The notes beneath the pieces were generated by a model, which worked only from the letters and a program-made list of their open reading frames with translations, did not search any database and was not told the origin of the DNA. A program made the translations under genes and the position numbers. From a virus (lineage: Duplodnaviria > Caudoviricetes), in IMG/VR virus record IMGVR_UViG_3300033402_000781, positions 1 to 39,337 of that record: 39,337 nt of DNA, one strand, 5' to 3'. This document shows positions 5,048 through 27,293 of this stretch, in pieces. Each line of letters opens with the position of its first letter. Positions within the stretch are counted from its first letter, which is position 1.

Positions 5048-5048
5048 G

Positions 5049-5420: not shown

Positions 5421-5439
5421 GTTAAGAGAGGAAAATAAT

Positions 5440-5997
5440 ATGGAAGCACAAGCTACCAAGACCCCAACAAAACGATACGCAGACGAAATTAGCGCCATTC
5501 TGGCGTCAAAGCAGAACAAAGTATCCAAGCTCATTGATATTGCCGAACTGCTTAATGGCAAGCTCTACGACATTGAAGATCAGCGCTTTGACTACATGGC
5601 ACGGCTGTTTGATGAAAGTATTCTAGCCGATAAGCTGCGTGCAACAAACGTCGATCGTGCCATCAAGGGTATTACGCAGGCTGTAACAGACTATAAGCAA
5701 GGTAATGCCTACCTTGTCCAGTATGCGTTCACCGCCCATTACCGAAGCCCTGAGATGTTCACAGACATGACAGAAGTGTCCGACGTCCGCACCAACGCTA
5801 ACCCAGCCCCTGGCAAAATTAAGATGGAAGCTAATATGTGGTTCCAGAGCTTGCCTAAGCAGAAAACTTTTAAGATAGCCGACAAGCATGAAGTTAGCTG
5901 CCGATTAAAGGGCGCTCGCATCCAGGTTAACCTCGTCGATAGCCACGGCAAACTAATTGATAAGCTTGGGCAATCCGAACTAAAAAGCAAGTTTTAA
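5440..5997 (+). CDS. hypothetical protein
   Basis: 185-aa ORF with GAGG RBS, in operon. Confidence 0.65.
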   Translation: MEAQATKTPTKRYADEISAILASKQNKVSKLIDIAELLNGKLYDIEDQRFDYMARLFDESILADKLRATNVDRAIKGITQAVTDYKQGNAYLVQYAFTAHYRSPEMFTDMTEVSDVRTNANPAPGKIKMEANMWFQSLPKQKTFKIADKHEVSCRLKGARIQVNLVDSHGKLIDKLGQSELKSKF

Positions 5998-6005
5998 GGG
6001 AACAT

Positions 6006-6407
6006 ATGAGCACCACGACCATACTCTGGAAACAACGCATCGTCCCCGCTGGTGGCTATATACCTAGCGAGGATACTATCGATATCATCCTGACTGATGC
6101 GGCGCTTCATGCTCAGAAGCCGAGTAGACCGGCTTCGCTGGTACGGAATTATGCTAAGCACCTTAAGGGTGGCAAACTTCGCCGTACTTACGGCAGCATC
6201 CGACCAGTAGCTGACAGCACTTTCGAGATGGATCTGAATTTTGACGAGCAGGAAGTGTTAGACTTGTTAGCTAAACACGGTAAACGCATGTTACGCATAT
6301 ATATGCCGACAGACCAATTGTCGGTATATCTTGCGCCAGATGCGCTAGAGAAAATAGAATCCCTAAAACGGAAGCACCTTTTACAAGTAAATCCGCGCAG
6401 TAATTAG
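6006..6407 (+). CDS. hypothetical protein
   Basis: 133-aa ORF with AGGG RBS, in operon. Confidence 0.6.
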   Translation: MSTTTILWKQRIVPAGGYIPSEDTIDIILTDAALHAQKPSRPASLVRNYAKHLKGGKLRRTYGSIRPVADSTFEMDLNFDEQEVLDLLAKHGKRMLRIYMPTDQLSVYLAPDALEKIESLKRKHLLQVNPRSN

Positions 6408-6445
6408 CGGGAATTGTGTATTCGGCTCAGTAGAGCCGTAGACGT

Positions 6446-6588
6446 TTGACGGCGTTGCGAGACACGTCAAGCTGAGAGGCAGTACGCCTCGACAGTGCCC
6501 ACTCTGCAGCAATATGGGGAAGCCCATGTCTTTTATTAGGCATGGATCAGACTTCCCGATATGGCTGTGGGGTGGGCACTTTTTATTT
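6446..6588 (+). ncRNA. structured leader/attenuator candidate upstream of the methylase-terminase operon
   Basis: Hairpins TTGACG..CGTCAA (GCGA loop) and GAGGC-AGTAC-GCCTC, then an 87-nt multi-segment stem (6494-6580) with G-U pairs followed by a T-run. Confidence 0.5.
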
Positions 6589-6618
6589 ACCTTAAAGCCA
6601 AATGGAAGGAATAAACCC

Positions 6619-7887
6619 ATGGCCAAACAACTAACAATCCAACACATAAACATCAATGAGCTGAAACCAGCTCTATATAATCCGCGCAAGTGGAGCGATG
6701 AGGCAGCCAAGCAGCTCACCGAAAGCATTAAGCGCTTCGGTTTAGTCGACCCGATCATCGTTAACGGCGCAGCGGCACGTAAAAACGTTGTCATCGGTGG
6801 CCATTTTCGTCTCAAGATCGCTAAAGACCTTGGCCTCAAAGAAGTGCCGGTGGTCTATATTGACATTCCTGACGAGGCCAAAGAGCGCGAGCTGAACCTA
6901 CGCCTTAACCGTAACACCGGTGAATGGGACTTTGAGCTGCTCAAGCAGTTCGATATTGACCTGCTACTGGACGTTGGCTTTGACGACCAAGACTTGGGTG
7001 ACATCTGGAACGATGCCCTAGAAACCGATGACGATGACTTTGACGTTGAAAAAGCCGTTAAGGAAGCAGCCGAAACAACCATTAAGCTGGGCGATCTGTT
7101 CCAGTTGGGCAAGCACCGTCTGATCTGTGGTAGCTCAACGGATGGGGCGGTTATAAAGCGCTTGGTTGGCGAGCACAAGCCAACCATGTTTTACAGCGAC
7201 CCACCGTATAACATTGGCTTGGACTATAACAAAGGCGTTGGGCTTAAGGCTGGCTACGGCGGCACTACCGACGACAATAAGTCTGAGACCGAGTACCGCA
7301 GCTTCCTGAGCGACATTCTGACGGCCTCACTACCAGTACTGGGCGATGACGCCCATATCTTCATGTACTGCGACCAGACCTACATCGGCCTGTTGCAATC
7401 ACTAATGGTCGAGCATGGGCTGAAGAACCGGCGGGTTTGTTTATGGATTAAGAATGGCTTTAACGTCGTGCCACAAGTAGCTTTTAACAAGGGTTACGAG
7501 CCATGTATCTACGCCACTCGAGGCAATCCGTATCTATCAGACACTAGCCAGAACCTAACTGAGATTCTTAACAAAGACATTGCTTCTGGTAACCGCACCA
7601 TAGATGACATCATCGACCTTTTCGACATCTGGTTGGCTAAACGTGAGGCCGGTCAAGACTACCAGCACCCTACTCAAAAGCCGATCACCTTGCATGAAAA
7701 ACCTCTAAAGCGTTGCACTAAGGTCTATGACGTAGTGCTGGACGTTTTTGGCGGCTCCGGCTCAACGCTTATAGCTTGTGAGCAAATGCTACGCACAGCA
7801 CTACTATCTGAACTTGAGCCAGTCTTCTGTCAAGTAATCATTGACCGCTGGGAAGCTTTGACTAGCGAAAAGGCCGTGCAGCTATGA
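6619..7887 (+). CDS. ParB-like N-terminal domain + DNA N6-adenine/N4-cytosine methyltransferase
   Basis: LKPALYNPRK...IGGHFRL ParB/Srx motif; SDPPY, HPTQKP, DVFGGSGST (beta-class MTase); start moved to ATG 6619 after GGAAGGA RBS. Confidence 0.92.
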   Translation: MAKQLTIQHININELKPALYNPRKWSDEAAKQLTESIKRFGLVDPIIVNGAAARKNVVIGGHFRLKIAKDLGLKEVPVVYIDIPDEAKERELNLRLNRNTGEWDFELLKQFDIDLLLDVGFDDQDLGDIWNDALETDDDDFDVEKAVKEAAETTIKLGDLFQLGKHRLICGSSTDGAVIKRLVGEHKPTMFYSDPPYNIGLDYNKGVGLKAGYGGTTDDNKSETEYRSFLSDILTASLPVLGDDAHIFMYCDQTYIGLLQSLMVEHGLKNRRVCLWIKNGFNVVPQVAFNKGYEPCIYATRGNPYLSDTSQNLTEILNKDIASGNRTIDDIIDLFDIWLAKREAGQDYQHPTQKPITLHEKPLKRCTKVYDVVLDVFGGSGSTLIACEQMLRTALLSELEPVFCQVIIDRWEALTSEKAVQL

Positions 7888-8624
7888 AAACCGGAGATAT
7901 TTACCAGTTAGGCCAGCATCGTTTGGCCTGCGGCAGCTCAAGTGAACCTGAGCTAGTAAAGAAGCTGGTTGGCAACGACAAGCTTGCTTTGATTCTCACA
8001 GACCCACCTTATGGGGTGTCGTACGTAGAGAGTAAGCAAGGCATCGCTAAGCTAGCCAGTACAAAAGTTATTGCCAACGATAATATTGAAAACGAAACAG
8101 AGTACGAGGCCTTTACTAACGCCTGGCTAGCAGCAACCAAGCCGTACCTAGCTCGTAAAAACAGCCTATATATCTTTAACAGTGACAAGATGCTATTGCC
8201 AACCATTCAGGCTCTGAAGGCTAGTGGCGGTAAGTTCGCTCAACTACTGATCTGGGCAAAAACACAAGCTGTCATTGGCCGATTGGACTACTTACCGCAG
8301 CACGAGCTGATTATCTATGGCTGGTATGGGACACACACTTTTAGCAAGAGCAAAGATAAAAGTATTCTGGTCTACCCAAAGCCTAGCTCTAGTAAGCTGC
8401 ACCCGACTATGAAGCCGATTGGTTTACTGCGCCGCTTGATCCTGAACAGCTCCACTGTTGGTGACATTGTCTTTGACGGCTTTGTGGGCAGCGGTAGCAC
8501 ACTTCTAGCCTGCGAACAGACCAACCGACGTTGTCTGGCCGTTGAACTTGACCCTGACTACTGCCAAGTGGTGATTAAGCGCTGGGAGAAGTTGATTGGC
8601 CAGAAAGCGGAGCAGCTATTATGA
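7884..8624 (+). CDS. site-specific DNA methyltransferase (N6_N4 family)
   Basis: TDPPY, HPTMKP, DGFVGSGST; ATGA overlap with upstream gene. Confidence 0.92.
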   Translation: MKTGDIYQLGQHRLACGSSSEPELVKKLVGNDKLALILTDPPYGVSYVESKQGIAKLASTKVIANDNIENETEYEAFTNAWLAATKPYLARKNSLYIFNSDKMLLPTIQALKASGGKFAQLLIWAKTQAVIGRLDYLPQHELIIYGWYGTHTFSKSKDKSILVYPKPSSSKLHPTMKPIGLLRRLILNSSTVGDIVFDGFVGSGSTLLACEQTNRRCLAVELDPDYCQVVIKRWEKLIGQKAEQLL

Positions 8625-9037
8625 GTCGTAACCAAGAACTGGATAAAAAGAAGCTCCTAGCGCGGCTTACCAAGTCACCGATTGTGGAAGTCGCCTGCAA
8701 ACAGGCTGGGGTGCCACGATCTACCTATTACCGCTGGCGTAAAGACGATGAAGAATTTGCTGAAGCCTGTGATGTTGCCCTTGAGGAGAGTGCTGGCCGA
8801 ATTAATGATTTGGCGGAATCCCAGCTGATCTCAGCTATTAAAGACCAGAACATGACCGCCATTATCTTTTGGCTGAAGCATCACCATAGAGCTTACCGCA
8901 CCCGAATTGAGCTTGATGCTCATATAAAACAAGATCAACAGGCTCTAACGCCAGAGCAAGCTGAAATGGTAGCCCAGGCTCTGCGTTTAGCTGGCCTAAC
9001 CAAATTACCGGAAGGAGAGACTAATGGACGCGACTGA
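8621..9037 (+). CDS. HTH protein, probable terminase small subunit
   Basis: VEVACKQAGVPRSTYYRWRKDD HTH, AIIFWLK motif; directly upstream of and overlapping TerL. Confidence 0.7.
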   Translation: MSRNQELDKKKLLARLTKSPIVEVACKQAGVPRSTYYRWRKDDEEFAEACDVALEESAGRINDLAESQLISAIKDQNMTAIIFWLKHHHRAYRTRIELDAHIKQDQQALTPEQAEMVAQALRLAGLTKLPEGETNGRD

Positions 9038-10526
9038 ATTACAAGATAAAGTATTTACAGATAAACAGGTTCGGGCTGAAGTAACAACCCAGAGCCACCA
9101 ATGGTTCTTTTCAACCTATTTCTCGGCTTATGTCACCCATGAAACGGCTGATCTGCACCGTGATCTGTTTGACATTAGTGAAGACGAGAGTCTACCACTA
9201 GCGGTCATTGTAGCCTTCCGTGGCTCGGGCAAGTCGACGATCATGACCTTGTCTTACCCCATTTGGGCAGTGCTTGGCCGACTGCAGAAGAAGTTCGTGT
9301 TAATAGCCAGCCAAACGCAGTATCAGGCTCGGGTTCACCTGACAAATATAAAGCGTGAGCTGGAAAGCAACGAGCTGCTCGCTAACGACCTAGGGCCATT
9401 CGTGGAGCAACGTGAAGAATGGGGTTCAACCTCGCTTTATATTCCAAAGTATAACGCTCGTATTACAGCTATCTCGACTGAGCAAAGCGTCCGGGGTATC
9501 CGCCATGGCCAGTACCGCCCTGACCTGATTATCTGCGATGATGTTGAGGATATGGCTTCTGTTAAGACGCGAGAAGGTCGTAACAAAACTTTTGATTGGT
9601 TTACTGGGGAAATTATTCCCGCTGGTGACACCTACACCAAGCGGATTGTAGTCGGTAACTTACTACACGAAGACTCATTGTTGATGCGCCTAAAAGAACG
9701 GATTGAGGAGGATGAGATTGATGGCAGCTTCCGCGAGTGGCCGATTGTTAAGGACGGTAAAAGCCTGTGGCCTGGCAAATATCCAGATAAGCAGTCGCTT
9801 AACGTCCTCAGGCGAACAATTGGTAACAAAATAGCTTGGGAACGGGAGTATATGTTGCGTATCATTCCTGACGAAGACCAGATTATTGATGCCCGCTGGA
9901 TCCAATACTATGAGGAGCTACCTGAGAAAATCGAGGAGAACGAATATATTAACTCTTTCTTGTCTGTTGACCTGGCTATATCTGAAAAAGCTTCCGCTGA
10001 CTGCACGGCCGTGGTTATTGTCCATGTCTTTGGTTTTAAACCAGAAGACCGTAAGTACTACATAGATAAACAGTTCCTCAATAGCCGGATTAGCCATTTG
10101 CAAACACTAGATTCAATTGTAGCAATGTATAAGCCATTGGTAGTTTCATATCAGGAATACCGACCACGTGCATTGATCGAACAAGTAGCTTACCAAACTG
10201 CTGCCCTAGAGCAGTTAAAGAACCGGGGCATTGAGGCCGTTGGCGTTAAGATTCATGCCGACAAACGGGCTCGCTTGCAGTTGGCCAGTCCTTTGTTTGA
10301 AATGGGTATGGTCTATTTTCCCAAAAGTCGGACCATTGCCCCGATTATTCAGCAAATAGTTGGCTTCGGTGTCGAGAAGCATGATGACTTAGCTGATGCC
10401 GTCTCAATGGCGCTCAACTACATCCAGACGAAGGTTAAGTGGGAAGTGACCTTTGGTTTCGGTTTCTTGGGTGGCGATGATGGAGGCAGCTATGAAGAGT
10501 TTTATGGGATCGTATACGAAGAATAA
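9024..10526 (+). CDS. terL: phage terminase large subunit
   Basis: AFRGSGKST Walker A, LIICDDVED Walker B, RNase H-like nuclease SVDLAIS..ADCTA and HDDLADA. Confidence 0.9.
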   Translation: MDATELQDKVFTDKQVRAEVTTQSHQWFFSTYFSAYVTHETADLHRDLFDISEDESLPLAVIVAFRGSGKSTIMTLSYPIWAVLGRLQKKFVLIASQTQYQARVHLTNIKRELESNELLANDLGPFVEQREEWGSTSLYIPKYNARITAISTEQSVRGIRHGQYRPDLIICDDVEDMASVKTREGRNKTFDWFTGEIIPAGDTYTKRIVVGNLLHEDSLLMRLKERIEEDEIDGSFREWPIVKDGKSLWPGKYPDKQSLNVLRRTIGNKIAWEREYMLRIIPDEDQIIDARWIQYYEELPEKIEENEYINSFLSVDLAISEKASADCTAVVIVHVFGFKPEDRKYYIDKQFLNSRISHLQTLDSIVAMYKPLVVSYQEYRPRALIEQVAYQTAALEQLKNRGIEAVGVKIHADKRARLQLASPLFEMGMVYFPKSRTIAPIIQQIVGFGVEKHDDLADAVSMALNYIQTKVKWEVTFGFGFLGGDDGGSYEEFYGIVYEE

Positions 10527-11495: not shown

Positions 11496-12455
11496 CTAAA
11501 TAATATCGAGAGTCTCCCAGTAGAATTTCTTGAGACTATGTTCGTTTGAGAATTGTCGTACTAAAGCTTCGTAGCTGGAAAAATTACTGGAGTCAATCTT
11601 GAGACGTACTCTAGTTTGTGTGGATTTTGTAATTCGATGCCCGTTCGGCCAAATATCAATACCAAGATACGTTACGCCATCTCGAACTGGTCTAAGCATA
11701 TCTAGTCTATGGCTGATTGTAAGTTTAAGCTCTTCGCCCAAAAAGTCTATAGCTCTGTGTCTGATTGCTTCAAGATCGTATTGGTTTGAGCTAAAACACA
11801 GCCAGTCATCGCCGTAGCGGAGATAAGCTGCTGGTTTGAGCGCATGAACCATGAAACGGTCGAACTCATTTTGGTAGATGTTAGCAAATATTTGGCTAGT
11901 CAGGTTGCCAATTGGTATTCCCAACCCTGCTTCTTTTTTCTGATAGCTGGATAGTACTTCTTGGATGAGCCACAAAGCATCCTGGCATGTAGTGCGGCGG
12001 CTGACGAGACTTAACAAGGTTTCCTGATCGACACTGTCAAAGAACTTGGTAATGTCTGATCGCCAAACCCATCCGTTAGCGTAGTCCTGCATATAGGAAG
12101 TTGCCCGTTCAATTGCCCTGTGCTGACCCTTACCGGGTCGGCATGACCAGGCATCAAAGATAAAGGTTTTGTCCCACGCTTGGACCAGAAAGTCATAGAT
12201 AAGCCGATGTACAACACGATCGCGCACCGGCGCAACCGCAATTTCTCGTCTCTTGGAATCCTGCACAATGAACTGTGCGTAAGCACCATGTTTGTAGCTT
12301 TTGTTCATCAGTTGGTGGGAGAGTTGGTCGATATTTGACTCTAGTGAATATTGAAAAGCGACAATCTCGCTACTCGCTCGTTTCCCACCGCGAAACGCAT
12401 ACCAACTCCTATATAAGTTAGAAAGGCTAAAATTAATGGAATCTGAATTACCCAT
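11496..12455 (-). CDS. DGR reverse transcriptase (RT1)
   Basis: KRREI..RDRVVH, SDITKFFDSVD, GIPIGNLTSQ (DGR-type SQ motif), RYGDD; no maturase/HNH tail; adjacent TR/VR pairs. Confidence 0.95.
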   Translation of the reverse strand: MGNSDSINFSLSNLYRSWYAFRGGKRASSEIVAFQYSLESNIDQLSHQLMNKSYKHGAYAQFIVQDSKRREIAVAPVRDRVVHRLIYDFLVQAWDKTFIFDAWSCRPGKGQHRAIERATSYMQDYANGWVWRSDITKFFDSVDQETLLSLVSRRTTCQDALWLIQEVLSSYQKKEAGLGIPIGNLTSQIFANIYQNEFDRFMVHALKPAAYLRYGDDWLCFSSNQYDLEAIRHRAIDFLGEELKLTISHRLDMLRPVRDGVTYLGIDIWPNGHRITKSTQTRVRLKIDSSNFSSYEALVRQFSNEHSLKKFYWETLDII

Positions 12456-12780
12456 AATATTAAGAGTTTACGATTTGTATAAGCAGCTGGTGGACTGCAA
12501 TGTAAAAATCCCAAAAATACATCGCTATGGCCTAGGCCAAAGTACTGAGGCAACTGCGCTTGCAGCTTTGGAAAGCCTGATCATGGCTAAGTACGCTCCT
12601 AAACCGAACAAAGCCAAATATTTAATATTAAGTGTCGCGCAAATTGAGACACTACGCTTTAAGCTACGCCTGTATCTGGAGTTACAGCTTGTCAACGAGA
12701 CAAAAGTCTTCCAGATGCAAGCAGTGCTGCAAGAGATTGGCCGTATGGCCACTGGTTGGCGCAAGAGCGTCACCTCGTAA
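12436..12780 (+). CDS. avd: DGR accessory variability determinant Avd (four-helix bundle), antisense to RT
   Basis: 114-aa basic helical protein, IPKIHRYGLG...LRFKLRL...EIGRMATGW, typical bAvd pattern; lies between TR1 and RT1. Confidence 0.85.
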   Translation: MESELPIILRVYDLYKQLVDCNVKIPKIHRYGLGQSTEATALAALESLIMAKYAPKPNKAKYLILSVAQIETLRFKLRLYLELQLVNETKVFQMQAVLQEIGRMATGWRKSVTS

Positions 12781-12790
12781 GAATTGATCC

Positions 12791-12901
12791 TCACTGCGAG
12801 GCGAACCCGCACATTGTCATTCTGGTTGTCAGCCCAGTTCAAGTTCGACTTGACCTGGCCATCGTTCCAGTTGCCATTCGGCACGTGCGGATCGCCACTA
12901 A
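12791..12901 (-). repeat. DGR1 template repeat (TR1)
   Basis: 111 nt aligned ungapped to VR1 (16 mismatches) and VR2 (16 mismatches); all mismatches at TR adenines; 8 AAY codons. Confidence 0.97.
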
Positions 12902-13255
12902 TATGTCACCCATGTCGAGGTATAGCAGGTAGCGCGCACGCAAGCTTGCTATAGGCAGTAGTTTGCCATTTCCAGAGCCACCGCTTTATGCATGTCTCTA
13001 TGGATAAACACCAGTGATGTTTAAATATTTCTGTTGCTCCATGACCTGCAGTCCGCCTCTGAAGGCACGCAAAATCAGCCATATAGTAGCAATAGAAGAG
13101 CTAGGTCGCTTGAGCAACCCACCTTGACCTCAGCACGATTCACCTTACTTATGAAGGTAGCATATAAACACCTTGAACGCCAAAAAATTTCGAGTGCAAG
13201 CACAAAGAATAAGAAATAAGTAAAAGGAAGAACTAATTACTAAATAATAAAAGTC

Positions 13256-14245
13256 TTACATCACTGCGAGGCGAACCCGCACAACGTCATCCCGGTAGGC
13301 AGCCCAGAGCAAGTACGACTCGACCTGGCCAACGCGCCAGTAGCCATACGGCACGTGCGGAACGCCACTAACTTCAAAGCGATTAGCTAGGAACCAGGAA
13401 ACATCCTGAGATGATAGTTTGCTAGGATCTTCTTGAAAAGTTAGACTCAGCCATTCGAGAATTCCCATATGGTCAACATCATGATCGGCAACTTTGAAGT
13501 GTTCACTACCATTGTTAGTGAGGGCATCTGGACTACGCTGTTCAGCTGGCCCCTCCACTAATCTCTTTAAGCCAGCATGGTCACTGGTTTGTGCCAATAT
13601 AACCCCCCAATCACCATCAGTTGTGAGTTTGTGATCAAGGTAAGCTTCAGCGCTGACATATGATCTGGAGGTCATGCCTGGCACAGGGTTACGATACATT
13701 TCAGTGCCATTCTGTAAAGCAGCCAGCAGGTCGTCATTAAAGTAATCATTTGAAGTAGCTAGGCCTTGTATATCTCGCAACTCTTTAATCCATTCAGGCA
13801 AGCGGTGTAAGTTATCCTTTAAGGTTCTCCACGGCATCAGTACAAGCTTCATAGTTTCACCGACGTTGAGGTCTTCAGGAGTTGCTTCATTACTAGCTAT
13901 TAAGTCTTGCTTTGCCCTATATAAATTCTCGAATCGAGTCGCTAGATTAGGGCTAACTTGCAGCAGTTCTTCCGCCGTTCTGGGTACAGTTTGGCCGAGA
14001 CGGGCACTATAACGATCCCATGACCCTAGAGCGCCATCAGCAAAGTTATTATCTAGCTCAACTCTTGCCCAACTAGCGGCCTCCGCGCTCAACCCCTCAG
14101 CACCATTACCATCTGGTGTAAGTAACTGGTTAGCTGGGCTTGGGCCCATAGCTAGACGAGTAAGAGCAGTTCTGGCTTCATCACTAAAACCACCCCATGG
14201 TGAGGTAGGTTCTGCTTCAGGTAGTGGATAGCGGAAGCTGGTCAT
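13256..14245 (-). CDS. DGR1 target protein A (C-terminal variable region, probable C-type-lectin-like fold)
   Basis: 3' end carries VR1; ATGA-coupled to the vWA gene; paralog of 17618-18574. Confidence 0.9.
   Translation of the reverse strand: MTSFRYPLPEAEPTSPWGGFSDEARTALTRLAMGPSPANQLLTPDGNGAEGLSAEAASWARVELDNNFADGALGSWDRYSARLGQTVPRTAEELLQVSPNLATRFENLYRAKQDLIASNEATPEDLNVGETMKLVLMPWRTLKDNLHRLPEWIKELRDIQGLATSNDYFNDDLLAALQNGTEMYRNPVPGMTSRSYVSAEAYLDHKLTTDGDWGVILAQTSDHAGLKRLVEGPAEQRSPDALTNNGSEHFKVADHDVDHMGILEWLSLTFQEDPSKLSSQDVSWFLANRFEVSGVPHVPYGYWRVGQVESYLLWAAYRDDVVRVRLAVM
13261..13371 (-). repeat. DGR1 variable repeat VR1
   Basis: 16 adenine-specific differences from TR1 (8 A>T, 5 A>G, 3 A>C). 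Confidence 0.97.
14088..14245 (-). repeat. 158-bp perfect inverted repeat (5' end of target A), partner 17618-17775
   Basis: Base-by-base identity from the ATG through ...GGGTTGAG, then abrupt divergence. Confidence 0.95.
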
Positions 14246-16134
14246 AATTTACTTCTCCTAATATAGTCTGCAAGAACCCCATGCAATTTACCAGGTAGTA
14301 CGTTGGGGTTGCCAACTACTTCGTGGTTATTGCTAATAAATTCTTGCACACCTCCACCAATAACTAAATGGGCTATATAGGCAGTTCCTGGCATTTCGGA
14401 TACTGTTTGGGTAGCAGCTGCATGGTCACCAAAATGCCCGTCGCTGATAATAATTGCAATAGCATCGCGCTTCGGCTTGGCTGCAGCGGCTTGTTTAACG
14501 TGCTGTAAGGCACCATTAACTAGTGTTGAGCTACTATCTGCCTCTAATAGGTTGGTGTACGTTTTACCTTTTTGTTGGCCAGTAGGCTGGTAAGAGAGGG
14601 GGCTTAGAACTTCAGTACCTGATCCAAAGGCAATAATTTGCGTTCGAACGTCTGGCTGATGATATTGCCCAGCAGTTCGGGCAACTTTATGCCTAGCGAG
14701 CTGTAAGCCTTCGATAAGGCACATAGCAGTATCAGCGGCACATTGGGCTTTAGAGCCTGCCATAGAACCACTAACGTCTACTAGCAAATGCACATCAAGA
14801 CCGCCAAAGGTAACTTCTTGTCTATGGGCTTCCCGTACAATTGGCTGCCAGATTGCTTGGCCTTGGTCGGTAGCTAATTGCAAGGCAACGCCTGCCATTG
14901 TACGTGGGTGTAGACGCACACCTTCAGTGTGGGCATCTCGTCTATAGCGAGGGCTCATGATGATATCAGCTGGCGCAGCAAGTTTCATAAAGACATCAGC
15001 CACCTCTTTGATAGTTGGTGTCCACTTGTCGAGTGAACGTACATAATTTTCGGCATCACCAGGGCTAAGATGCATTTCAGCAGCTATGGTCCCGGCTAAT
15101 TCAGATAATTGTGCCTCGCGTTGCTCTTCCGATGTTGAATCTGTCTTAGTACGATTAGATTGAGCCTTGGCTCTAGCCTCATTTTGGGCTTCTTGTTCTT
15201 GAGTGGCCTGCTTAATTGCTTTTGCCATTTGCTCGGCTAATCCACCCTTATCTCCTGGCTTATCAGAAGGCTGGCCTTGCTCCTGTTGAGAATCTGCGCC
15301 TTCGCTATCACCCTTGTGTTGGTGGCCATGAACTGCATCCTCATATTGCTCGTAAACTGCTTCAAATCTGCCTTCACCTTCATCGGATTCACCTTTATCA
15401 CTATGCTCTTGTTTGTCTTGCTCGAGTAAGGCCTCAAAGTGAGGGCGTATAAATTTATCAGCAATACGGCGACGTTCAACTAAGGTAGTGCGCGGATCAG
15501 TTATAACATCCATAATGTCAAAAACTTGATCACCTTTTTCATATTCTCTTAACGAACCAAGAATTTCTGCAACTTTGTTATCCATTGTTATAGCTGGAGT
15601 ATCAATAACTGTGCCGATACGCATGCCATACATAAGTTGCACATGCTTGGGTAGTTCTGTAAGGTCGGAGGGCATTTGATGGGAATAGACAGCATCGGCA
15701 TTGGCATCGAGTACAGGCACTCTCCGATTACGCTTATCTATAACCGTGTCATCAACCAAACAGTTAAAGAAATCTCCCGCAGGCTCTGGTTTTACTGGTT
15801 TGCGCCAGTTTGGGTCTAGGTAATCATTAGCGTGGCCTAATTCATGAGCGGCAATAAACAGCGAGGTCACTTCTGGTGACACAGTAGAAGGCCCTACTTC
15901 TGCCTTGCTTTCAACTCCATTGCCTTCAACAGACTGCTGGGGGTCAACAGTTATAGTTAAGCCATGCTCAGTTTTAGCACAACTCCAACCGCCACCTGGC
16001 TGAGTTACTACTTCTAGGCCACGTATACCATATAATAGACCAAGCTGATGAACACCTTGTTCCAGCTTGTGTTGATCCCAATTGGGTTGGATTGATTCAA
16101 TCTCTGAGTTTGACACTAATGTCTCCAGAATCAT
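14242..16134 (-). CDS. vWA-domain protein with N-terminal HExxH metallopeptidase-like domain (MoxR partner)
   Basis: AAHELGHA, acidic/Q-rich linker, MIDAS LLVDVSGSM and IISDG; start probably ATG 16134 or GTG 16116 rather than TTG 16200. Confidence 0.88.
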   Translation of the reverse strand: MILETLVSNSEIESIQPNWDQHKLEQGVHQLGLLYGIRGLEVVTQPGGGWSCAKTEHGLTITVDPQQSVEGNGVESKAEVGPSTVSPEVTSLFIAAHELGHANDYLDPNWRKPVKPEPAGDFFNCLVDDTVIDKRNRRVPVLDANADAVYSHQMPSDLTELPKHVQLMYGMRIGTVIDTPAITMDNKVAEILGSLREYEKGDQVFDIMDVITDPRTTLVERRRIADKFIRPHFEALLEQDKQEHSDKGESDEGEGRFEAVYEQYEDAVHGHQHKGDSEGADSQQEQGQPSDKPGDKGGLAEQMAKAIKQATQEQEAQNEARAKAQSNRTKTDSTSEEQREAQLSELAGTIAAEMHLSPGDAENYVRSLDKWTPTIKEVADVFMKLAAPADIIMSPRYRRDAHTEGVRLHPRTMAGVALQLATDQGQAIWQPIVREAHRQEVTFGGLDVHLLVDVSGSMAGSKAQCAADTAMCLIEGLQLARHKVARTAGQYHQPDVRTQIIAFGSGTEVLSPLSYQPTGQQKGKTYTNLLEADSSSTLVNGALQHVKQAAAAKPKRDAIAIIISDGHFGDHAAATQTVSEMPGTAYIAHLVIGGGVQEFISNNHEVVGNPNVLPGKLHGVLADYIRRSKL

Positions 16135-16168
16135 TGACAATATTAACATAAAATGGTAAACTTGTAAA
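16134..16168. promoter_or_regulatory. overlapping divergent sigma70 promoters
   Basis: + strand TTGACA(16134)-17-TAAACT(16157) with TG extension; - strand TTTACA(16168)-17-TAATAT(16145) with TG extension. Confidence 0.7.
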
Positions 16169-16171
16169 GTT

Positions 16172-17608
16172 ATGAACGTTTTGGAATGCGCTGGCAGCAA
16201 CGCTTGTCGGCAATACTGTGAAGCGCTCCGCTCTCAAGGCGTAGCGGTGGAGATTGATGAAGCTGGTTGTAATGTACCAGCTATGTTTACTATTGAGAAA
16301 GATGGTGTCGTCTTCGACCCTACGCCCGCTGAAGAAGCCATCCAAAACTTAGATTTAGTAAATAACCTTGGTGGCGCACTTTGTGGTGCCCTAATAGAAC
16401 GTACACACGATGATCCTGATCAGAAGACGGTAAGCGAGCTGATTGATGGTTATAAAGAGACTTTTTCAGATAGACTTACACTTTGGCAAGCTATGTTAAG
16501 TGCTACGCGTGACGGTCGTCAGTTTACAGATGTCGAACTTAAATTTTATCAAGGTAAATTAGCTCAAGCTGACGTTGCTGTACATGAACGCGCAGCAGAT
16601 TCTACACCGGAATCGGTCTTGAGAGCTCAAGCAGCTGCGGACCATACTACCCTAAATGAGCATAAGCTATTGTTTGATGATCAAATGATAGGTACAGTCG
16701 ATCGCTTAGTCAGCAATCTTATGGACAGCAAACCTACCCTATTGGTAGGAGATAAGGGTATTGCTAAAACTCAAGCTGCTAAATTTGTAGCTGAGCTATG
16801 GGATCCTGGAAATGAACCGGTTATTATCTCTGGTCATGGCGATATGATGAGCAACGAGCTAGTTGGGCAAATGGAGCAAGATAAGGATACCCGTGTCTTT
16901 GGCTTCAAAGAAGGCAAATTAGTTAAAGCTATGCGTGAAGGCCGCCCAGTTATAATCGACGAGGTAAACGTTGGTGATCAGCCAGTCATTATGCGCTTGC
17001 AAGATATACTCCTGCGTCGTCCTGGTGATCGAATTCTAATCCAAGAAAACGGTGGTGACTCGATTGAGATTCAACCCGGCTTTGTAGTTTTTGCAACTGC
17101 CAACGAAGCATCTGCTCGCTACCAACACCGTAACGTGCTCGACCCCGCTTTCCGTGACCGTTATGACGTTATTAACTTACGGTATCCAGACAGCGACAGT
17201 CGTAATCCAGCTCAAGATGTACCTCGTTCACTTATGCGGCTGGCTTTAGCGGCTGCAGTTGATGAGCAAGGTGTCTTGAGTCGTCACATTGATGCCGCAG
17301 AACTCGAGCGATTAGTTCGTCTAAGCCACGTAACACAACACCTTTATAGTGTGCCAGCTCGTAATGCGCGCGTTACTAATTTAAATACTGGTCAATCTAC
17401 TAGTAATTTCCTTGACGAAGAACCGGTTATGACCGATTGTATTACGCCCCGTACTTTAGTAGACACTGTGCAACGCTGCGCTACCGGTAATAAACCGGGT
17501 ATGTCTTTAGTAAGTGAGATGGAGCGGGTAATTGTTGGTTTAGACCAGGCCGGCAGCGCCCATAACCAATCACATGCTCGACGTGCGTTAACGTTACTGC
17601 AAAGGTAA
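16172..17608 (+). CDS. MoxR/CbbQ-like AAA+ ATPase (AAA_5)
   Basis: LLVGDKGIAKT Walker A variant, VIIDEVN Walker B, FATAN sensor I, LDPAFRDRY arginine finger, TPRTL. Confidence 0.9.
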   Translation: MNVLECAGSNACRQYCEALRSQGVAVEIDEAGCNVPAMFTIEKDGVVFDPTPAEEAIQNLDLVNNLGGALCGALIERTHDDPDQKTVSELIDGYKETFSDRLTLWQAMLSATRDGRQFTDVELKFYQGKLAQADVAVHERAADSTPESVLRAQAAADHTTLNEHKLLFDDQMIGTVDRLVSNLMDSKPTLLVGDKGIAKTQAAKFVAELWDPGNEPVIISGHGDMMSNELVGQMEQDKDTRVFGFKEGKLVKAMREGRPVIIDEVNVGDQPVIMRLQDILLRRPGDRILIQENGGDSIEIQPGFVVFATANEASARYQHRNVLDPAFRDRYDVINLRYPDSDSRNPAQDVPRSLMRLALAAAVDEQGVLSRHIDAAELERLVRLSHVTQHLYSVPARNARVTNLNTGQSTSNFLDEEPVMTDCITPRTLVDTVQRCATGNKPGMSLVSEMERVIVGLDQAGSAHNQSHARRALTLLQR

Positions 17609-17617
17609 TATTAATAC

Positions 17618-17775
17618 ATGACCAGCTTCCGCTATCCACTACCTGAAGCAGAACCTACCTCACCATGGGGTGGTTTTAGTGATGAAGCCAGAACTGCTCT
17701 TACTCGTCTAGCTATGGGCCCAAGCCCAGCTAACCAGTTACTTACACCAGATGGTAATGGTGCTGAGGGGTTGAG
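17618..17775 (+). repeat. 158-bp perfect inverted repeat (5' end of target B), partner 14088-14245
   Basis: Identical reverse complement of 14088-14245. Confidence 0.95.
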
Positions 17776-18574
17776 TAGTGAAGTACAGGTCTGGGCTAGC
17801 GAAGCATTAAATAACCTGAGCAACTATTTTGACACATGGCAGAACTATGATGGCCAGCTTGGAGTAGCAAAATCAGTTTCGGTTGGCGAGCTAGCTGCCA
17901 ATAATCCAAATTTAGTTAGTAAGCTCACTCATCTATATGAGACAAAGCAAGCCCTGCTAGCAAGCGGCGAGTCTACACCTGAAGGTACAAATATCGGCGA
18001 AACTATGCGTTTGGCACTAGTGCCTTGGCAAGAGATGAGGAATCACTTAAGTGATTTTGATGAATGGGTAGATGGACTTCGGAATGCCCAAGGCCTTGAT
18101 AGCGAAGATTATATAAATGAAGATCTGCTAGCAGCTATAAAAGGTAACAGTCCTTTTTACAGGGATTCTGTTACTCCGTCTCAATTATTGACTGCCAGTC
18201 AGTACTTGGATAAAAAAATTGCCGAAGATGGGCCAGTTGGCGTTATGCTTGTGCAAACTAGCGACGCTGCCGGTATTGAGCGTCTCGTAGGTCAAAGCCC
18301 CGATCAAATGACTAGTGATGGCTCACAGCATTTGGAAGTGGCAGGAAGTAATGTTGATAGTATGGGTGTATTTGAGTGGATAGCTTTGACACTACAATCT
18401 GATCCTGCACAGCTTTCAAGCGATGACTATTCCTGGATGTTGGCAAACCGTTTAGACGTTAGTGGCGATCCGCACGTGCCGTTTGGCGGCTGGGACGGTG
18501 GCCGGGTCAGGTCGCTCTTGAACTGGGCTGGCAGCCAGGTTGGCGATGTGCGGGTTCGCCTCGCAGTGATGTAA
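17618..18574 (+). CDS. DGR1 target protein B (C-terminal variable region)
   Basis: 3' end carries VR2; 9 nt after the MoxR stop; first 53 aa identical to target A. Confidence 0.9.
   Translation: MTSFRYPLPEAEPTSPWGGFSDEARTALTRLAMGPSPANQLLTPDGNGAEGLSSEVQVWASEALNNLSNYFDTWQNYDGQLGVAKSVSVGELAANNPNLVSKLTHLYETKQALLASGESTPEGTNIGETMRLALVPWQEMRNHLSDFDEWVDGLRNAQGLDSEDYINEDLLAAIKGNSPFYRDSVTPSQLLTASQYLDKKIAEDGPVGVMLVQTSDAAGIERLVGQSPDQMTSDGSQHLEVAGSNVDSMGVFEWIALTLQSDPAQLSSDDYSWMLANRLDVSGDPHVPFGGWDGGRVRSLLNWAGSQVGDVRVRLAVM
18459..18569 (+). repeat. DGR1 variable repeat VR2 (remote, opposite orientation to TR1)
   Basis: 16 adenine-specific differences from TR1 (11 A>G, 4 A>T, 1 A>C). Confidence 0.97.
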
Positions 18575-18692
18575 GACTTTTATTATTTAGTAATTAGTTC
18601 TTCCTTTTCTTCTTTTTATTACTTATTGTTATCGAAATTTTTTGGAGATTTTGGGCTGGACTTTCATCCCCTTACTGATACCTTTGTCCTTG

Positions 18693-20054
18693 ATGAACCC
18701 ACCAGAAATACAACTCACCAACACCTCAGCCTTCCAGCTGCCTAATGAAAAGAATGGCAAGCCAGTCCAACGCACTGATTTAAAAGCAAAACGGGTTGAG
18801 TACTGTCTTTATGCAAGGAAGTCCAGTGAAGATGACGAAAGACAAGCACTTTCCATCGACTCGCAGCTAAAAGAAATGGCAATCCAGGCTGAAGCGCAGG
18901 GACTTCGAGTTACAGAAATCAGAAAAGAGAGCCACTCAGCTAAACAATCAGGCCAAAGACCGGTTTTTGAAGGGATAATAGCTGATGTGCGGAGAGGCTT
19001 GTTTACCGGCATATTGAGTTGGGCACCAGATAGATTGAGTAGAAATGCTGGAGATTTAGGTGTCCTAGTGGACTTAATGGATCAAGGCAGACTGATAGAG
19101 ATCAGAACCCATGGTCAGGTATTCACTAACTCTCCTAACGACAAATTCCTGCTGATGATTCTTTGCTCCCAAGCTAAGCTAGAGAACGATAATCGAGGAA
19201 TTAACGTCAAGCGAGGCATGAAAACCAAGTGTGAGCTGGGCTTTAGACCCAATATGACGCCGCTAGGCTATCTTAATGACCACTATTCAGGCAAAGGCCA
19301 AAAGCAAGTCTTTGTCGATGAGACAAGAGCCCCTCTGATAAAGGAAGCCTTTGAGAAAGTGGCTGCTGGTGCAAGTGGCCGAGAAATCTACGATTGGATG
19401 AAAGAGATAGGTTTTAGAACTAAAAGCGGTAAATGTATAACTTTAAGTGGTGTCTATCGTATGCTGAATAACCCGTACTACTGCGGCATCTTCGAGTTCC
19501 CGATGGGCAGCGGTAAATGGTACAAGGGATCATACACACCGATTATTTCAAGAGAGCTATTCGATGCAGTTCAGAAGCAGATGGAAGTAAATCCAAAGAG
19601 TAAGCCGGGTACTAAGCAGTTCGACTACACCAAACTACTGATATGCGGTGGTTGTGAGTCTGGTGTTACTGCTCAGGAAAAGCTTAAAAGGCACAAAAAC
19701 GGAACTGTTAGCCGGTATGTGTACTATCACTGCACTCAATCAAGGAACTTTGACTGCCCTCAGGCTTATATTCGGGAAGAAAAACTGGCTGAGGCCTTCG
19801 TTAGACTGCTAGACAAGATAACAATCGAGGAAATCGAAGCCAAAGTAGGTTTAAAGAATGAACTTGATAGATTTAGGCGCTTATCGTCTGCTGTCCTAGG
19901 ATTTAACGGTACTGAAGGACAGCCAGAGATCAGCCTCCATAACTTCGCTAAATACATTCTTACAGAAGGCACCAGGGGCGAAAAGCGAGACCTGATAGCC
20001 TGTCTTAATCAGACGATTTATCTCAAAGACAAAGAACTAATCACTCAAATCTAA
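18693..20054 (+). CDS. large serine recombinase (second family)
   Basis: YCLYARKSSED, SWAPDRLSRN, TPLGY, CGGC...YYHC..CP; start set at ATG 18693. Confidence 0.93.
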   Translation: MNPPEIQLTNTSAFQLPNEKNGKPVQRTDLKAKRVEYCLYARKSSEDDERQALSIDSQLKEMAIQAEAQGLRVTEIRKESHSAKQSGQRPVFEGIIADVRRGLFTGILSWAPDRLSRNAGDLGVLVDLMDQGRLIEIRTHGQVFTNSPNDKFLLMILCSQAKLENDNRGINVKRGMKTKCELGFRPNMTPLGYLNDHYSGKGQKQVFVDETRAPLIKEAFEKVAAGASGREIYDWMKEIGFRTKSGKCITLSGVYRMLNNPYYCGIFEFPMGSGKWYKGSYTPIISRELFDAVQKQMEVNPKSKPGTKQFDYTKLLICGGCESGVTAQEKLKRHKNGTVSRYVYYHCTQSRNFDCPQAYIREEKLAEAFVRLLDKITIEEIEAKVGLKNELDRFRRLSSAVLGFNGTEGQPEISLHNFAKYILTEGTRGEKRDLIACLNQTIYLKDKELITQI

Positions 20055-20237: not shown

Positions 20238-20331
<94 letters not shown>

Positions 20332-23461: not shown

Positions 23462-25501
23462 ATGCAAACACCAGGCAGCCAATTTCTACACGAAAGAAAC
23501 CCAAACCTTCACTCTTCTCAGGAAGTTGAAGGAGTTGTTGGCTATCTGCGTGCTGGAGGAGAATCTATCCCTAATGAGCCATCAGACAAAATCTCTGCTT
23601 ACCTAGGTTTTTTAGCCAACGGAGATTACGTTAATGACGGTATTCTTACAGGTGATCAGTCTAGTATTGACCGACAGATAGATGCTCATGTTATAAAAAC
23701 CGAAGATGTTCCAGAAAGCTATTTTGAACTTCAAAGGCGTATAGCCAGGGAGCAAGGACACGGTGATATTAACATTACCCGCGAAATGCGCGAACAAATG
23801 ATTGAAGCAGCTCAAGCAGACCAACGAGTTGGACTAAGCAAATGGGTAGAGTATCTTGGTGGCGAGGATGGAGGCTATCCAGATTGGTTTAAGCACTATA
23901 CCTTTAGTTCTGTTACGAAAATAGGTGGTTTCGATAAAGAAAAAGGCGAATTTCTAAAACGAAGCAAAGGTACAACTGCTCCTTACCCTGAACTTAACCG
24001 TGAAGCACTAGCCTACGTTTATGATGTCCTGAACAAGTCAAGGGTACAGGGTGAAAAAGTTGATGGCGGTGCTAGCGATGAGCAACTACAAAAACTACTG
24101 AAAGGTGCAAACTTCGGTAGACTTTACGCTCACGCTGTTCTGGCCACAGCTCCAACCTCACCCGAATTGCTAAAAGACACTCATGGCTCTTGGACAAAGT
24201 TTAATCAAACAAATGACCCTCGAACTGCCCGACGTTTGTCTGGATCCTTACAGGGTCACGGTACGGGTTGGTGTACTGCCGGTGAAAGTACAGCCAAATC
24301 ACAACTGAGTGGTGGAGACTTCTACGTCTACTATACCCGTGACGAAGATGGCAAAGACACCGTCCCACGAGTAGCTATTCGTATGCAAGAAGGTACTGTC
24401 GCAGAGGTTCGTGGCATTAACGCCACTCAGGAACTAGAACCAGAACTTGCGGATATAGCTTCCGAGCAACTGCAAGACCTGCCTGGAGGCGAAGAGTACA
24501 TACGTAGAGCCGAAGACATGAAACGTCTAACCGCTATTGATAAAAAGATAACTGCTGATCGCAGTGCCCAACTAAGTAAAGAGGAAATACGCTTCTTGTA
24601 CGAATTTGACCATGAAATTCAGGGCTTCGGCTATGAAACTGATCCAAGGATTGCTGAAATTCGTGCCAAGCGAGGTGAACTTGACTACCCTGAGCTAAAG
24701 GTTCTAGCAGTTGAACACCTAAGGGAGAGTTTTGAAGCTGCATATACCGGGTACAACGCTATAGCCGCAGAACTTAATAAATTGCGAGCCTCAAGACCTC
24801 ATCCTAAACGCTTATTCGGTAGACGTTCTGTTGAACACAGCTTAGGTGAACAGATACCAATACTTAACCGTGAACAAGTGACCAAACTGTATGAGCAGAA
24901 ATTGGCTGAGTGGCGAGAAAATGGCGTACTTGACTATGTCGCTGAACGAATTGTTACACACGGTGAACGTCATACACCAATTGCTCGACCAAACATCGTT
25001 GCCTCTACTGACGAGCTAAAGGAATTAGCGCACAACTTTGCCAAGGGTCAGGGTTGGGATGAGGCATACATCTATCATGCACTATACGATGCCTATACGA
25101 CTAACGAAGAACTAGCTCAGTTGTCTGGTTTCCATGAGAATGGTGATCCAGTAGAATTTAGCCTGATTCCTAATAAGTTTTCTGACGAACTTGGTTACAA
25201 AACAGCTGAAGAGCAACGTGGAATATTGAATACTCTAAAGGCTCAAAGTCCAAAACTTAATAGACACATATCTAGTGTATTAGATGGCTTAAGCCTGTGG
25301 TTTACCCTGCGAGCCCAAGGTGATCGCCTAAAGAGTGGTAATGTCTACGACCGTACCGGTATTCGTCATATAGATGTCCCTGAAAAGCGCGTGGACGGCG
25401 ACGATCGTGTGCCTGGCTCGGCTGTGGGCGATGTTGGCGGGCCTGGTCTGAGCGGCTCGTATGCTCGGGTTGGCGGCGATGCTCGTGTCTCGGTGGGGTA
25501 A
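23462..25501 (+). CDS. DGR2 target protein (679 aa; GTGWCTAG-containing N-terminal domain, C-terminal variable region)
   Basis: 3' end carries VR3; central SLQGHGTGWCTAG..GGDFYVYY..PRVAIRM..EVRG motif block. Confidence 0.9.
   Translation: MQTPGSQFLHERNPNLHSSQEVEGVVGYLRAGGESIPNEPSDKISAYLGFLANGDYVNDGILTGDQSSIDRQIDAHVIKTEDVPESYFELQRRIAREQGHGDINITREMREQMIEAAQADQRVGLSKWVEYLGGEDGGYPDWFKHYTFSSVTKIGGFDKEKGEFLKRSKGTTAPYPELNREALAYVYDVLNKSRVQGEKVDGGASDEQLQKLLKGANFGRLYAHAVLATAPTSPELLKDTHGSWTKFNQTNDPRTARRLSGSLQGHGTGWCTAGESTAKSQLSGGDFYVYYTRDEDGKDTVPRVAIRMQEGTVAEVRGINATQELEPELADIASEQLQDLPGGEEYIRRAEDMKRLTAIDKKITADRSAQLSKEEIRFLYEFDHEIQGFGYETDPRIAEIRAKRGELDYPELKVLAVEHLRESFEAAYTGYNAIAAELNKLRASRPHPKRLFGRRSVEHSLGEQIPILNREQVTKLYEQKLAEWRENGVLDYVAERIVTHGERHTPIARPNIVASTDELKELAHNFAKGQGWDEAYIYHALYDAYTTNEELAQLSGFHENGDPVEFSLIPNKFSDELGYKTAEEQRGILNTLKAQSPKLNRHISSVLDGLSLWFTLRAQGDRLKSGNVYDRTGIRHIDVPEKRVDGDDRVPGSAVGDVGGPGLSGSYARVGGDARVSVG
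25386..25499 (+). repeat. DGR2 variable repeat VR3
   Basis: 114 nt ungapped against TR2: 27 mismatches, 26 at TR adenines (22 A>G, 3 A>T, 1 A>C) and one T>G. Confidence 0.97.
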
Positions 25502-25541
25502 AAACTTAATCCTTGTTACTTAATTTGTTTCTTTTCCCTTT

Positions 25542-25561
25542 ATCTTTGCTTTAGCAAAGAT
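25542..25561 (+). other. DNA hairpin downstream of VR3 (candidate DGR target-recognition stem-loop)
   Basis: ATCTTTGC-TTTA-GCAAAGAT, 8-bp stem with 4-nt loop, 40 nt after the stop codon. Confidence 0.5.
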
Positions 25562-25816
25562 CGAACGCGGGTTTTGTTAAAATATCAATTAAGAGGTAAG
25601 TAATCCAAGGGCTGATTTTAGCCTATCGGTGCCTCAAGGATTGCTTGTAAACACATGTTCTTAATGAACTATAGGCTTCGTTTAAGATGTTTACACAACC
25701 AGAACCTTCCCAATACCCCACGAATTGCTGCCAAGGAGTTCGCAGTTGCGGACTGAGAATAGTTAAAGAAACTATCTACACGTAGATAGTGGAGTGAACC
25801 TGGCGGAATTATAGCG

Positions 25817-25930
25817 AGCACGTAGACGGCAACGATCTTGTGCCTAACTCGAATGTGAACGATGATGGCAAGCCTAATCTGAACAACTCGAATGCTCGGA
25901 ATGACAACAATGCTCGTGTCTCGGTGAAGT
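25817..25930 (+). repeat. DGR2 template repeat (TR2)
   Basis: Adenine-rich copy of VR3 with 11 AAY codons. Confidence 0.97.
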
Positions 25931-25942
25931 TTGGGAAGTTAC

Positions 25943-26261
25943 CTAGTCTACACTTTTACGCCAGCCGCCAATCTGGCGGCGAGCTTCGGTTAATTTGGCT
26001 TGGATTTTTAATACATTGGTTTCGTTTGTTAGTTTTAGTTCTAAAATTGCTCTCAGCTTTAAAGCTGTTAGTTCGCTTGCAGCGTCAGCATTAATAAGAT
26101 AAGTTGCTTTGAGTGGTTTAGGGGCATGCTTGGCTAGAATAAGCTGTTCTAAGATATTGCTACAGCTTGCAACTGCAGGTTCTGCTAAAGTGTGACGATA
26201 CTTCTTATCTATGGTGGTACTAAGAGTAACTAGCTTTTTATAAATTTCATAAGTAGTAGTA

Positions 26262-26281
<20 letters not shown>
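25943..26281 (-). CDS. avd: DGR Avd protein, antisense to RT2
   Basis: MEELSVITTTYEIYK...KHAPKPLKATYL...NETNV...IGGWRKS, homologous to 12436-12780; start set at ATG 26281 by alignment. Confidence 0.85.

Positions 26282-27293
<1,012 letters not shown>

Follow-up and report, generated by a model that had tools for sequence, protein, structure and literature searches.

Lectin-type targets of a diversity-generating retroelement that may dock on a MoxR–vWA pair through a shared N-terminal tag

The DNA analyzed here is virus record IMGVR_UViG_3300033402_000781 (Duplodnaviria; Caudoviricetes), positions 1 to 39,337; this whole stretch of 39,337 nucleotides (nt) is called the window. Between positions 13,256 and 18,574 it encodes a von Willebrand factor A (vWA) protein and a MoxR-type AAA+ ATPase on opposite strands, each followed by a gene for a target of a diversity-generating retroelement (DGR). 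The DGR reverse transcriptase (RT), the accessory protein Avd and the template repeat (TR) lie beside target A, and each target carries a variable repeat (VR) at its 3' end. The features of the locus are as follows.

11496..12455, minus strand: DGR reverse transcriptase RT1, 319 amino acids (aa), uninterrupted frame with YGDD; RVT_1 E 3.6e-14
12436..12780, plus strand: Avd, antisense to the TR and RT; bAvd E 1.8e-10
12791..12901, minus strand: template repeat TR1, 111 nt with 28 adenines
13183..13255, minus strand: T-rich element 3' of the target A stop
13256..14245, minus strand: target A, 329 aa, N-terminal tag and lectin-type body; its start overlaps the vWA stop (ATGA, 14242-14245)
13261..13371, minus strand: VR-A, with 16/16 mismatches to TR1 at template adenines
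14088..14245, minus strand: inverted-repeat arm 1, 158 nt, codons 1-53 of target A (the tag)
14242..16116, minus strand: vWA protein, 624 aa, with an N-terminal HExxH domain, a charged linker and a C-terminal vWA domain of Rea1/NorD type with a metal ion-dependent adhesion site (MIDAS)
16134..16168, no strand assigned: overlapping back-to-back sigma70-like promoter matches, 10/12 towards MoxR and 9/12 towards vWA
16172..17608, plus strand: MoxR-type AAA+ ATPase (AAA_5), 478 aa, Cys-rich N-terminus
17618..18574, plus strand: target B, 318 aa, with the same tag as target A and a predicted C-type-lectin fold
17618..17775, plus strand: inverted-repeat arm 2, 158 nt, the 5' end of target B
18459..18569, plus strand: VR-B, with 16/16 mismatches to TR1 at template adenines
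18575..18645, plus strand: T-rich element 3' of the target B stop

Gene coordinates and strands agree with the mirror layout described in an earlier sequence-only reading of this DNA (target A and vWA on one arm, MoxR and target B on the other), and the tight linkage it reported is seen on both arms, as the ATGA overlap and as a 9-nt gap between the MoxR stop and the start of target B (17609-17617). The vWA gene probably begins at 16116, which gives the 624 aa of the database entry, and not at 16200. The promoter calls are consensus matches alone, in a region with 14 such sites versus 11.8 by chance, and their position is their sole support.

That one template, TR1, serves both targets, as the same reading proposed, is borne out by the 16/16 adenine-only differences in each VR (chance of this pattern, with 28 adenines in 111 nt, 3.7e-12 per TR/VR pair) and by the adjoining RT and Avd genes. 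A whole-window scan for adenine-only repeats returned three pairs, TR1/VR-A, TR1/VR-B and one from a second DGR described below. In TR1, 17/36 codons are variable, giving a theoretical repertoire of ~2e15 proteins. Avd matches PF22296 at 41.7 bits (cut-off 40) and NF033474 at 65.7 bits, below the cut-off of 80. At seven related loci all 10/10 TR/VR pairs, which were found by an adenine-only search, differ at adenines only. The T-rich element is conserved 3' of the VRs of relatives and is missing 3' of the TR. The Bordetella DGR has a DNA hairpin downstream of its VR; here the folding z is -0.02 to -0.9 in 5/5 T-rich elements, and a hairpin is not significant. Rfam matched nothing but tRNA.

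Targets A and B are exactly identical over their first 158 nt, and their bodies are 47% identical. Neither was matched by Pfam, NCBIfam, PADLOC or PHROGs. A model of target B built with 48 homologues has a predicted local distance difference test (pLDDT) score of 84, with residues 1-50 low (pLDDT 42-56). Its top structure matches are CarF (Z 6.3), the DGR target TvpA (Z 6.2, root mean square deviation (rmsd) 3.9, 140 residues aligned), Mtd (Z 5.4) and TaqVP (Z 5.2); these Z values are middling, and chains with the C-type-lectin (CLec) fold dominate the list. A Foldseek search of the PDB with the target model gave no row at E<=0.001. The targets are predicted from this model to have a CLec fold with the VR in the C-terminus, which answers the structural question raised by the sequence-only reading in favor of the lectin fold.

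The HExxH and MIDAS motifs claimed for the vWA protein are present, and their residues are conserved in relatives. HELGH occupies residues 91-95 and the MIDAS comprises D447/S449/S451/T531/D559, of which aspartates D447 and D559 are invariant; close homologues keep HExxH (35/36) and DxSxS (35/36). Among 17 distant vWAs, H91, E92 and H95 are nearly invariant and D123 is invariant, and clade II vWAs carry a HExxxH variant. By sequence comparison, the N-terminal domain is predicted to carry a zincin-like metal-binding site, H-E-x2/3-H...D. Searches of solved structures with the whole vWA model returned no zincin rows, the vWA domain having filled the lists. The C-terminal half, pre-vWA elements included, is closest to Rea1-MIDAS and NorD (two matches, one with Z 19.8, rmsd 3.0 and 209 residues aligned, the other with Z 18.5, rmsd 6.1 and 227 aligned), and modeling predicts a domain of the Rea1/NorD type. 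The MoxR protein matches AAA_5 (E 1e-18) and has Walker A GDKGIAKT, Walker B D263-E264 and an invariant R330; its Walker, sensor and arginine motifs are kept, and the Walker and arginine-finger motifs occur in 64-75/79 homologues. ATPase homologues that are 44-48% identical (P0273, P0287, P0292, P0330) are assigned by name to Eggerthellaceae, Gordonibacter, Clostridiales XIII and Treponema.

Relatives of the locus (L numbers) and of its proteins (P numbers) were compared by gene neighborhood. From 19 target-anchored loci we set aside L001 (this element, 99.96%), L005 (the same as L004), three that start inside the target and the ambiguous L018. At all 13 informative loci vWA and/or MoxR is adjacent (L010, L011 and L013-L016 are closely related and do not count as independent), so homologous targets do not mostly occur apart from MoxR and vWA, the pattern that the sequence-only reading had named as contrary to its proposal. 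Target-family matches occur in 3/401 genomes of the class, every one beside MoxR. Anchoring on vWA gave 15 loci, of which one was dropped as a 59-residue match; MoxR is present at 14/14 of the rest, lectin-type neighbors are present at 9/14, and 1/14 is cut. A second lectin body family, homologous to the target body family (hhalign 95.5%), is found in 10/401 genomes, six of which are profile sources; one match belongs to a decayed cassette without MoxR and the tenth lies at a contig end. At 12 extra loci outside the profile set, MoxR is beside vWA at nine, and a TR/VR pair is present at two, both on AAA_5 fusions. All named vWA relatives are Saccharibacteria or Patescibacteria; the vWA occurs in 12/401 genomes of the class, and a wider profile finds it in 16/381 of a phylum sample. 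In L025, L029, L030 and L033 the order is MoxR, one gene of 265-297 aa without a Pfam match, and vWA, all in the same direction; several of these middle genes begin with a YNPFD-like motif.

The DGR is less constant than the cassette. A TR/VR pair was found at 3/14 vWA-anchored loci and an RT at 2/14, cassettes without a DGR are present in other Saccharibacteria genomes, and RT1 was not found in 10/10 genomes with an RT-less cassette locus (a search with no positive control, in genomes that may be incomplete). Given the locus counts (13/13, 14/14 and 3/14), the targets are strongly linked to MoxR/vWA, and the cassette carries the DGR as an optional accessory. The dependence of the system on its DGR had been overstated, since most cassettes have none. 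At L004, L010, L019 and L021 the RT is truncated, frameshifted or interrupted, with targets and core intact.

The N-terminal tag tracks the ATPase more closely than the lectin body does. A tree of 25 ATPases has two deep clades with both lectin body families in each; each tag type groups in a clade together with its ATPases, and the lectin bodies are swapped. The window's tag is found on the other body family in 4/62 matches (P0208 and three L023 genes). Over 41 proteins, in an alignment chosen by the tag, the tag is more conserved than the body (0.67 vs 0.49-0.58). Homology among the three tag groups is weak or absent (hhalign 0.1-10%), and the tags are therefore not claimed as one family.

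Where the tag is absent, the body may be joined directly to the ATPase. P0159 joins an AAA_5 domain directly to an untagged target body, and this ATPase groups with those of tagged loci (support 98/97). L097 encodes an AAA_5-lectin fusion and a stand-alone gene, identical in body and VR, with one TR, Avd, RT and vWA; in L120 and L123 a DGR-mutated ATPase-lectin fusion again lies beside vWA. All fused examples except P0159 were reached by way of the vWA. In P0050 a target has the Cys-rich N-terminus of MoxR in place of the tag (E 1e-11), which could be a deletion fusion or could hint at a common binding site for both ends.

Conversely, one tag can serve several bodies. Arrays of 4-7 genes with one common N-terminus flank the core in L096, L098, L117, L125 and L128. 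L098 (G486:C2:3000-17000) has seven complete genes around vWA and MoxR with one predicted helical tag of ~45 residues, which we take to be reminiscent of a UVR hairpin; one of the bodies is WD40 and six are non-WD40, and ahead of these genes lies another WD40 gene, truncated by the locus edge. In L125 one tag is carried by GXGXG and WG-repeat bodies, and in L119 a leucine-rich repeat (LRR) gene follows vWA. The array bodies of L096 and L098 gave no alignment to either lectin body family. N-terminal scores have a median of 104 within loci (61 pairs) vs 20 between loci (759 pairs), for groups picked by eye. The suggestion of the sequence-only reading that the targets are adaptors is partly supported by these comparisons, with the ATPase-lectin fusions and the tagged arrays pointing the same way.

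Shared 5' ends have another possible source. They may be common simply through duplication or gene conversion, or may mediate self-association of the targets, with the genes co-inherited on an island and the mirror layout serving inversion or body swapping. Exact 5' DNA identity, which extends over 158 nt in the window, 152 nt in L021, 465 nt in L027 and 360 nt in L028, shows recent homogenization. The body downstream of MoxR also differs between loci, as inversion would predict: the gene after vWA in the window is A and the gene after MoxR is B; in L006, the gene that follows MoxR is 76% identical to A. On the vWA side of L002, L020 and L021, the body is nearer B (62-63%) than A (47%). These arrangements suggest that inversion through the 5' repeats explains the exchange of bodies between loci, and such an inversion would swap operon partners because the core contains the divergent promoter matches. 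We nonetheless consider an origin without docking unlikely as the whole explanation. The tags stay alike in protein after DNA identity is lost (longest exact match 8-15 nt in 9/15 pairs), and their conservation exceeds that of the body in the tag-chosen alignment. In the tandem arrays of L098 and L125 one tag sits on unrelated folds, and physical linkage as a full account is disfavored for this reason. Since the 158-nt repeat is perfect, the orientation of the window's inner cassette depends on assembly, and an assembly error across the repeat may be the cause of it. A contig from run X3 joins the 5' end of target A to the 3' end of MoxR via this repeat and was considered as proof of inversion; it was rejected, being one contig at depth 3, with a repeat longer than the assembly word and the competing flanks uncovered.

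The lack of membrane anchoring noted in the sequence-only reading holds for all four proteins, none of which has a hydrophobic segment: the top 19-residue hydropathy is 0.61-1.11 in the targets, vWA and MoxR vs 2.57 in a neighboring membrane protein (the hydropathy maximum is a crude test and not a signal-peptide predictor). A hydrophobic export signal was likewise not found in 47/48 and 19/19 family members. This bears on the idea that the lectins are clients, which MoxR-vWA folds, cleaves at the tag or assembles into a surface or secreted structure for host recognition. The low model confidence in the tag is as expected of a captured peptide, and the classic DGR targets in the fold list, Mtd and TvpA, are surface proteins. 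According to the available text of PMC7159879, it is the vWA that captures a client peptide in characterized MoxR-vWA pairs, and the consulted part of PMC13622651 describes Saccharibacteria as living on host surfaces. A client role is nevertheless rather unlikely in our estimate, given the missing export signals and the fusion of the lectin to the ATPase (P0159, L097, L120, L123), with which export is hard to reconcile.

We consider the chances about even that the lectins, with C-terminal tips rewritten by the DGR, dock on MoxR-vWA by the ~50-residue tag and hand over bound ligands. Under this receptor model the variable tip would bind a ligand in the cytoplasm, most likely proteins of an invading phage or mobile element, and the tag would dock the receptor on the MoxR-vWA complex, replacing the covalent link of the ATPase-lectin fusions. 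ATP hydrolysis by MoxR would then pull on or remodel the captured protein, and the H-E-x2/3-H...D site might cut that protein or the vWA linker in a metal-dependent manner. The receptor set on one engine could be varied in three ways, by DGR mutagenesis, by paralog arrays and by body swapping. The purpose would be surveillance against phage or other invaders, a role in keeping with proteins that are cytoplasmic and hypervariable and with islands that are patchily distributed and repeatedly lost. If the model is true, cells with very small genomes possess an adaptive protein-recognition system. The small tag and three catalytic sites can be named for mutation, and four soluble proteins of 318-624 residues suffice for testing.

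Several observations weigh against the receptor model. The tag profile has no match on MoxR or vWA (hhalign probability 0.06 and 0.26%), and the L098 tag was likewise not found on either, so the tag does not belong to the published type of homotypic adaptor. For tags next to the core, recombination within the tag is an equally simple explanation of how they track the ATPase tree. In L096 and L117 the protein middles are as alike as the N-termini. At 4/14 vWA-anchored loci a single unrelated gene lies between MoxR and vWA, without a lectin, and two distant matches of the second body family have no MoxR or vWA within 13 kb. No VR variants were found among the matches listed from four contig sets (contigs drop rare variants). 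PADLOC gave 0 matches for seven proteins, and no VMAP, TIR, caspase, kinase or other effector domain was found among 30 window proteins. This last result also counts against a signaling or abortive-infection switch, in which the ligand activates MoxR and the HExxH domain, as a toxic or signaling protease, attacks proteins of the cell itself. This domain is the sole candidate effector at the locus, and such a model has been proposed for multicellular bacteria in the text available from PMC10907252; the part of PMC13622651 at hand describes the Esr pathway, with sensing through MoxR and vWA. A switch of this type is, in our judgement, quite improbable here. Folding of the tag (residues 1-55) with vWA (8-624), MoxR 1-175 and zinc gave a complex score of 0.10 and a mark of 0.32, with no controls folded and most of the ATPase absent, and speaks neither for nor against docking.

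More tentatively, and with some doubt, the receptor model may extend to a modular machine of Patescibacteria resembling the Skp1-cullin-F-box (SCF) complexes, in which a MoxR-vWA/metallopeptidase engine would accept plug-in receptors, each a tag with any fold, as adaptive intracellular 'recognize and destroy' immunity. Binding folds in this extension are lectin, WD40, WG-repeat, GXGXG and LRR-like, and the receptor set would change through gene arrays, swaps by recombination or inversion, and DGR hypermutation. Eukaryotic F-box receptors are a working analogy for receptors made of tag and body; no homology is claimed. If the extension is true, it would give a function to many CPR (candidate phyla radiation) DGR targets that have no known domain.

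Parts of this arrangement have precedents. Ternary MoxR-vWA systems in which the vWA is fused to DGR-mutated FGS domains are described in the accessible text of Kaur et al. 2020 (PMC7159879), and MoxR hexamers work via a peptide-capturing vWA partner according to the parts seen of PMC7159879 and PMC13036017. Dore et al. 2024 (PMC10907252), as far as that text goes, extend MoxR-vWA systems and report CPR targets that are mostly CLec fused to an AAA ATPase. In sections of earlier surveys, Midasin matches are given for CPR DGR targets (Wu et al. 2018, PMC5758913), and the CPR is described as DGR-rich with targets mostly without membrane or known domains, their role left open (Roux et al., PMC8144416); the terms vWA and MoxR have 0 occurrences in the main texts of these two papers. 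In the same parasitism, the host partner has a MoxR-vWA pathway according to the portion consulted of PMC13622651. To judge from the text available of PMC7159879 and PMC10907252, DGR-diversified CLec with MoxR-vWA is already published, and the novelty claimed for the concept was overstated. In the literature covered we found no account of the split, tagged, array-forming CPR form; Paul et al. 2017 and supplements lie outside that coverage and may bear on novelty. What appears new from our sequence comparisons is a tag that follows the ATPase tree, is absent in fusions and, in arrays, occurs as one tag on unrelated bodies.

The VMAP-type ternary systems share MoxR, a MIDAS vWA and a DGR-mutated CLec in one locus, with a proposed sensor role. 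In those systems the CLec is fused to vWA, whereas here it is a separate gene, with the vWA protein ending at its vWA domain and a stop between vWA and target A. A third core component (VMAP, iSTAND, FtsH or a vWA-fused propeller) is not found here by Pfam and NCBIfam scans, and the two lectins are the sole other genes at the locus. The vWA has an N-terminal HExxH domain, and the host is a small-genome epibiont. Effector-associated domains (EADs), in the available text of PMC7159879, resemble the tag as short, mostly helical N-terminal modules common to neighboring genes. The likeness includes a module that sits on different bodies, is most alike within a locus and is replaceable by direct fusion. 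An EAD, in contrast, has a copy fused to a core component, and no tag copy is present on MoxR or vWA. On these three points (third component, fusion and EAD copy) the locus is set apart from the published MoxR-vWA systems.

The AAA/Midasin-CLec targets of CPR (UVR4/category g1 of Wu et al. 2018, PMC5758913, and Paul et al. 2017 as cited in PMC10907252; UVR4 is compared by description) share AAA_5, a related lectin body and the gene order TR, Avd (antisense) and RT. There the ATPase and VR form one polypeptide, as in the fused forms of the present family (P0159, L097, L120, L123; also Atlas structure rows 5 and 7), whereas the window's form is split and has a tag. NorQ-NorD and Rea1/Midasin-MIDAS act on one fixed client, in contrast to the variable partner set found here. 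The locus and its relatives tie one group of CPR 'AAA-lectin' DGR targets, fused or free, to a MoxR-vWA machine.

The sequence-only reading placed the system on a mobile element, and two context genes are consistent with an island.

18642..20054, plus strand: large serine recombinase
20241-20331: tRNA-Ser(CGA), beyond the serine recombinase

An island beside tRNA-Ser and the recombinase is the part of this claim that stands. No attachment-site (att) duplication was seen: an att-like copy of tRNA-Ser of at least 12 nt was not found in the window, and one stretch tried in the att search is intergenic and unique. Virus collections (viral contigs and phage genomes) gave no relatives, and many cassettes lie among housekeeping genes, for example between genes that are presumably hpf and secA, as named by us from sequence. 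L028, L056-L058, L060, L061 and L063 all have their cassette at one site beside secA; both ATPase clades are represented there, the lectin bodies are divergent, and none carries a DGR. The L061 copy is decayed and lacks MoxR. The same context bears on whether the pair is a chaperone/peptidase for virion assembly in a prophage or satellite, the lectins then being its receptor-binding proteins. The window is a virus record with terminase genes upstream, and the full-length vWA resembles phage CobT-like vWA models (E 1.5e-12) and one 'metallopeptidase'. In the text seen of Iyer et al. 2021 (PMC7824862), a CobS/CobT-like peptidase-vWA/MoxR pair of this kind is proposed for jumbo phages; likenesses to it are a vWA with an N-terminal metallopeptidase-like domain, the charged linker and the MoxR partner. 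Unlike the phage pair, the present one is cellular and is coupled to variable binders and DGRs. With no viral relatives, many cassettes amid housekeeping genes and 19 tested proteins that all lack a capsid or tail match, a role in virion assembly is highly improbable.

The window holds a second DGR (23462-27293), whose 679-aa target has no family matches and shows 24/25 mismatches at adenines. Its further features are listed below.

25408-25499: VR
25839-25930: TR
25943-26359: antisense Avd
26262-27293: RT2

RT2 contains an (AGAC)24 run at 26786-26881, in frame and directly before the GLPIGN motif. The L001 copy (19169-19272) has 26 AGAC units and a broken frame, at the site of the RT2 repeat the L019 RT (near 1199) is broken and contains a CAGC run, and the L010 RT is also broken there. 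Slippage at the repeat run in RT2 could be a means of switching DGR activity.

Two related blocks, at 1349-10526 and 27473-38526, are 73-87% alike, and each runs from a serine recombinase to ParB-methylase, methylase, and small and large terminase genes. No capsid or tail match was found among the proteins tested. The terminase blocks are possibly satellite-like elements, and they are probably the reason for the window's status as a virus record.

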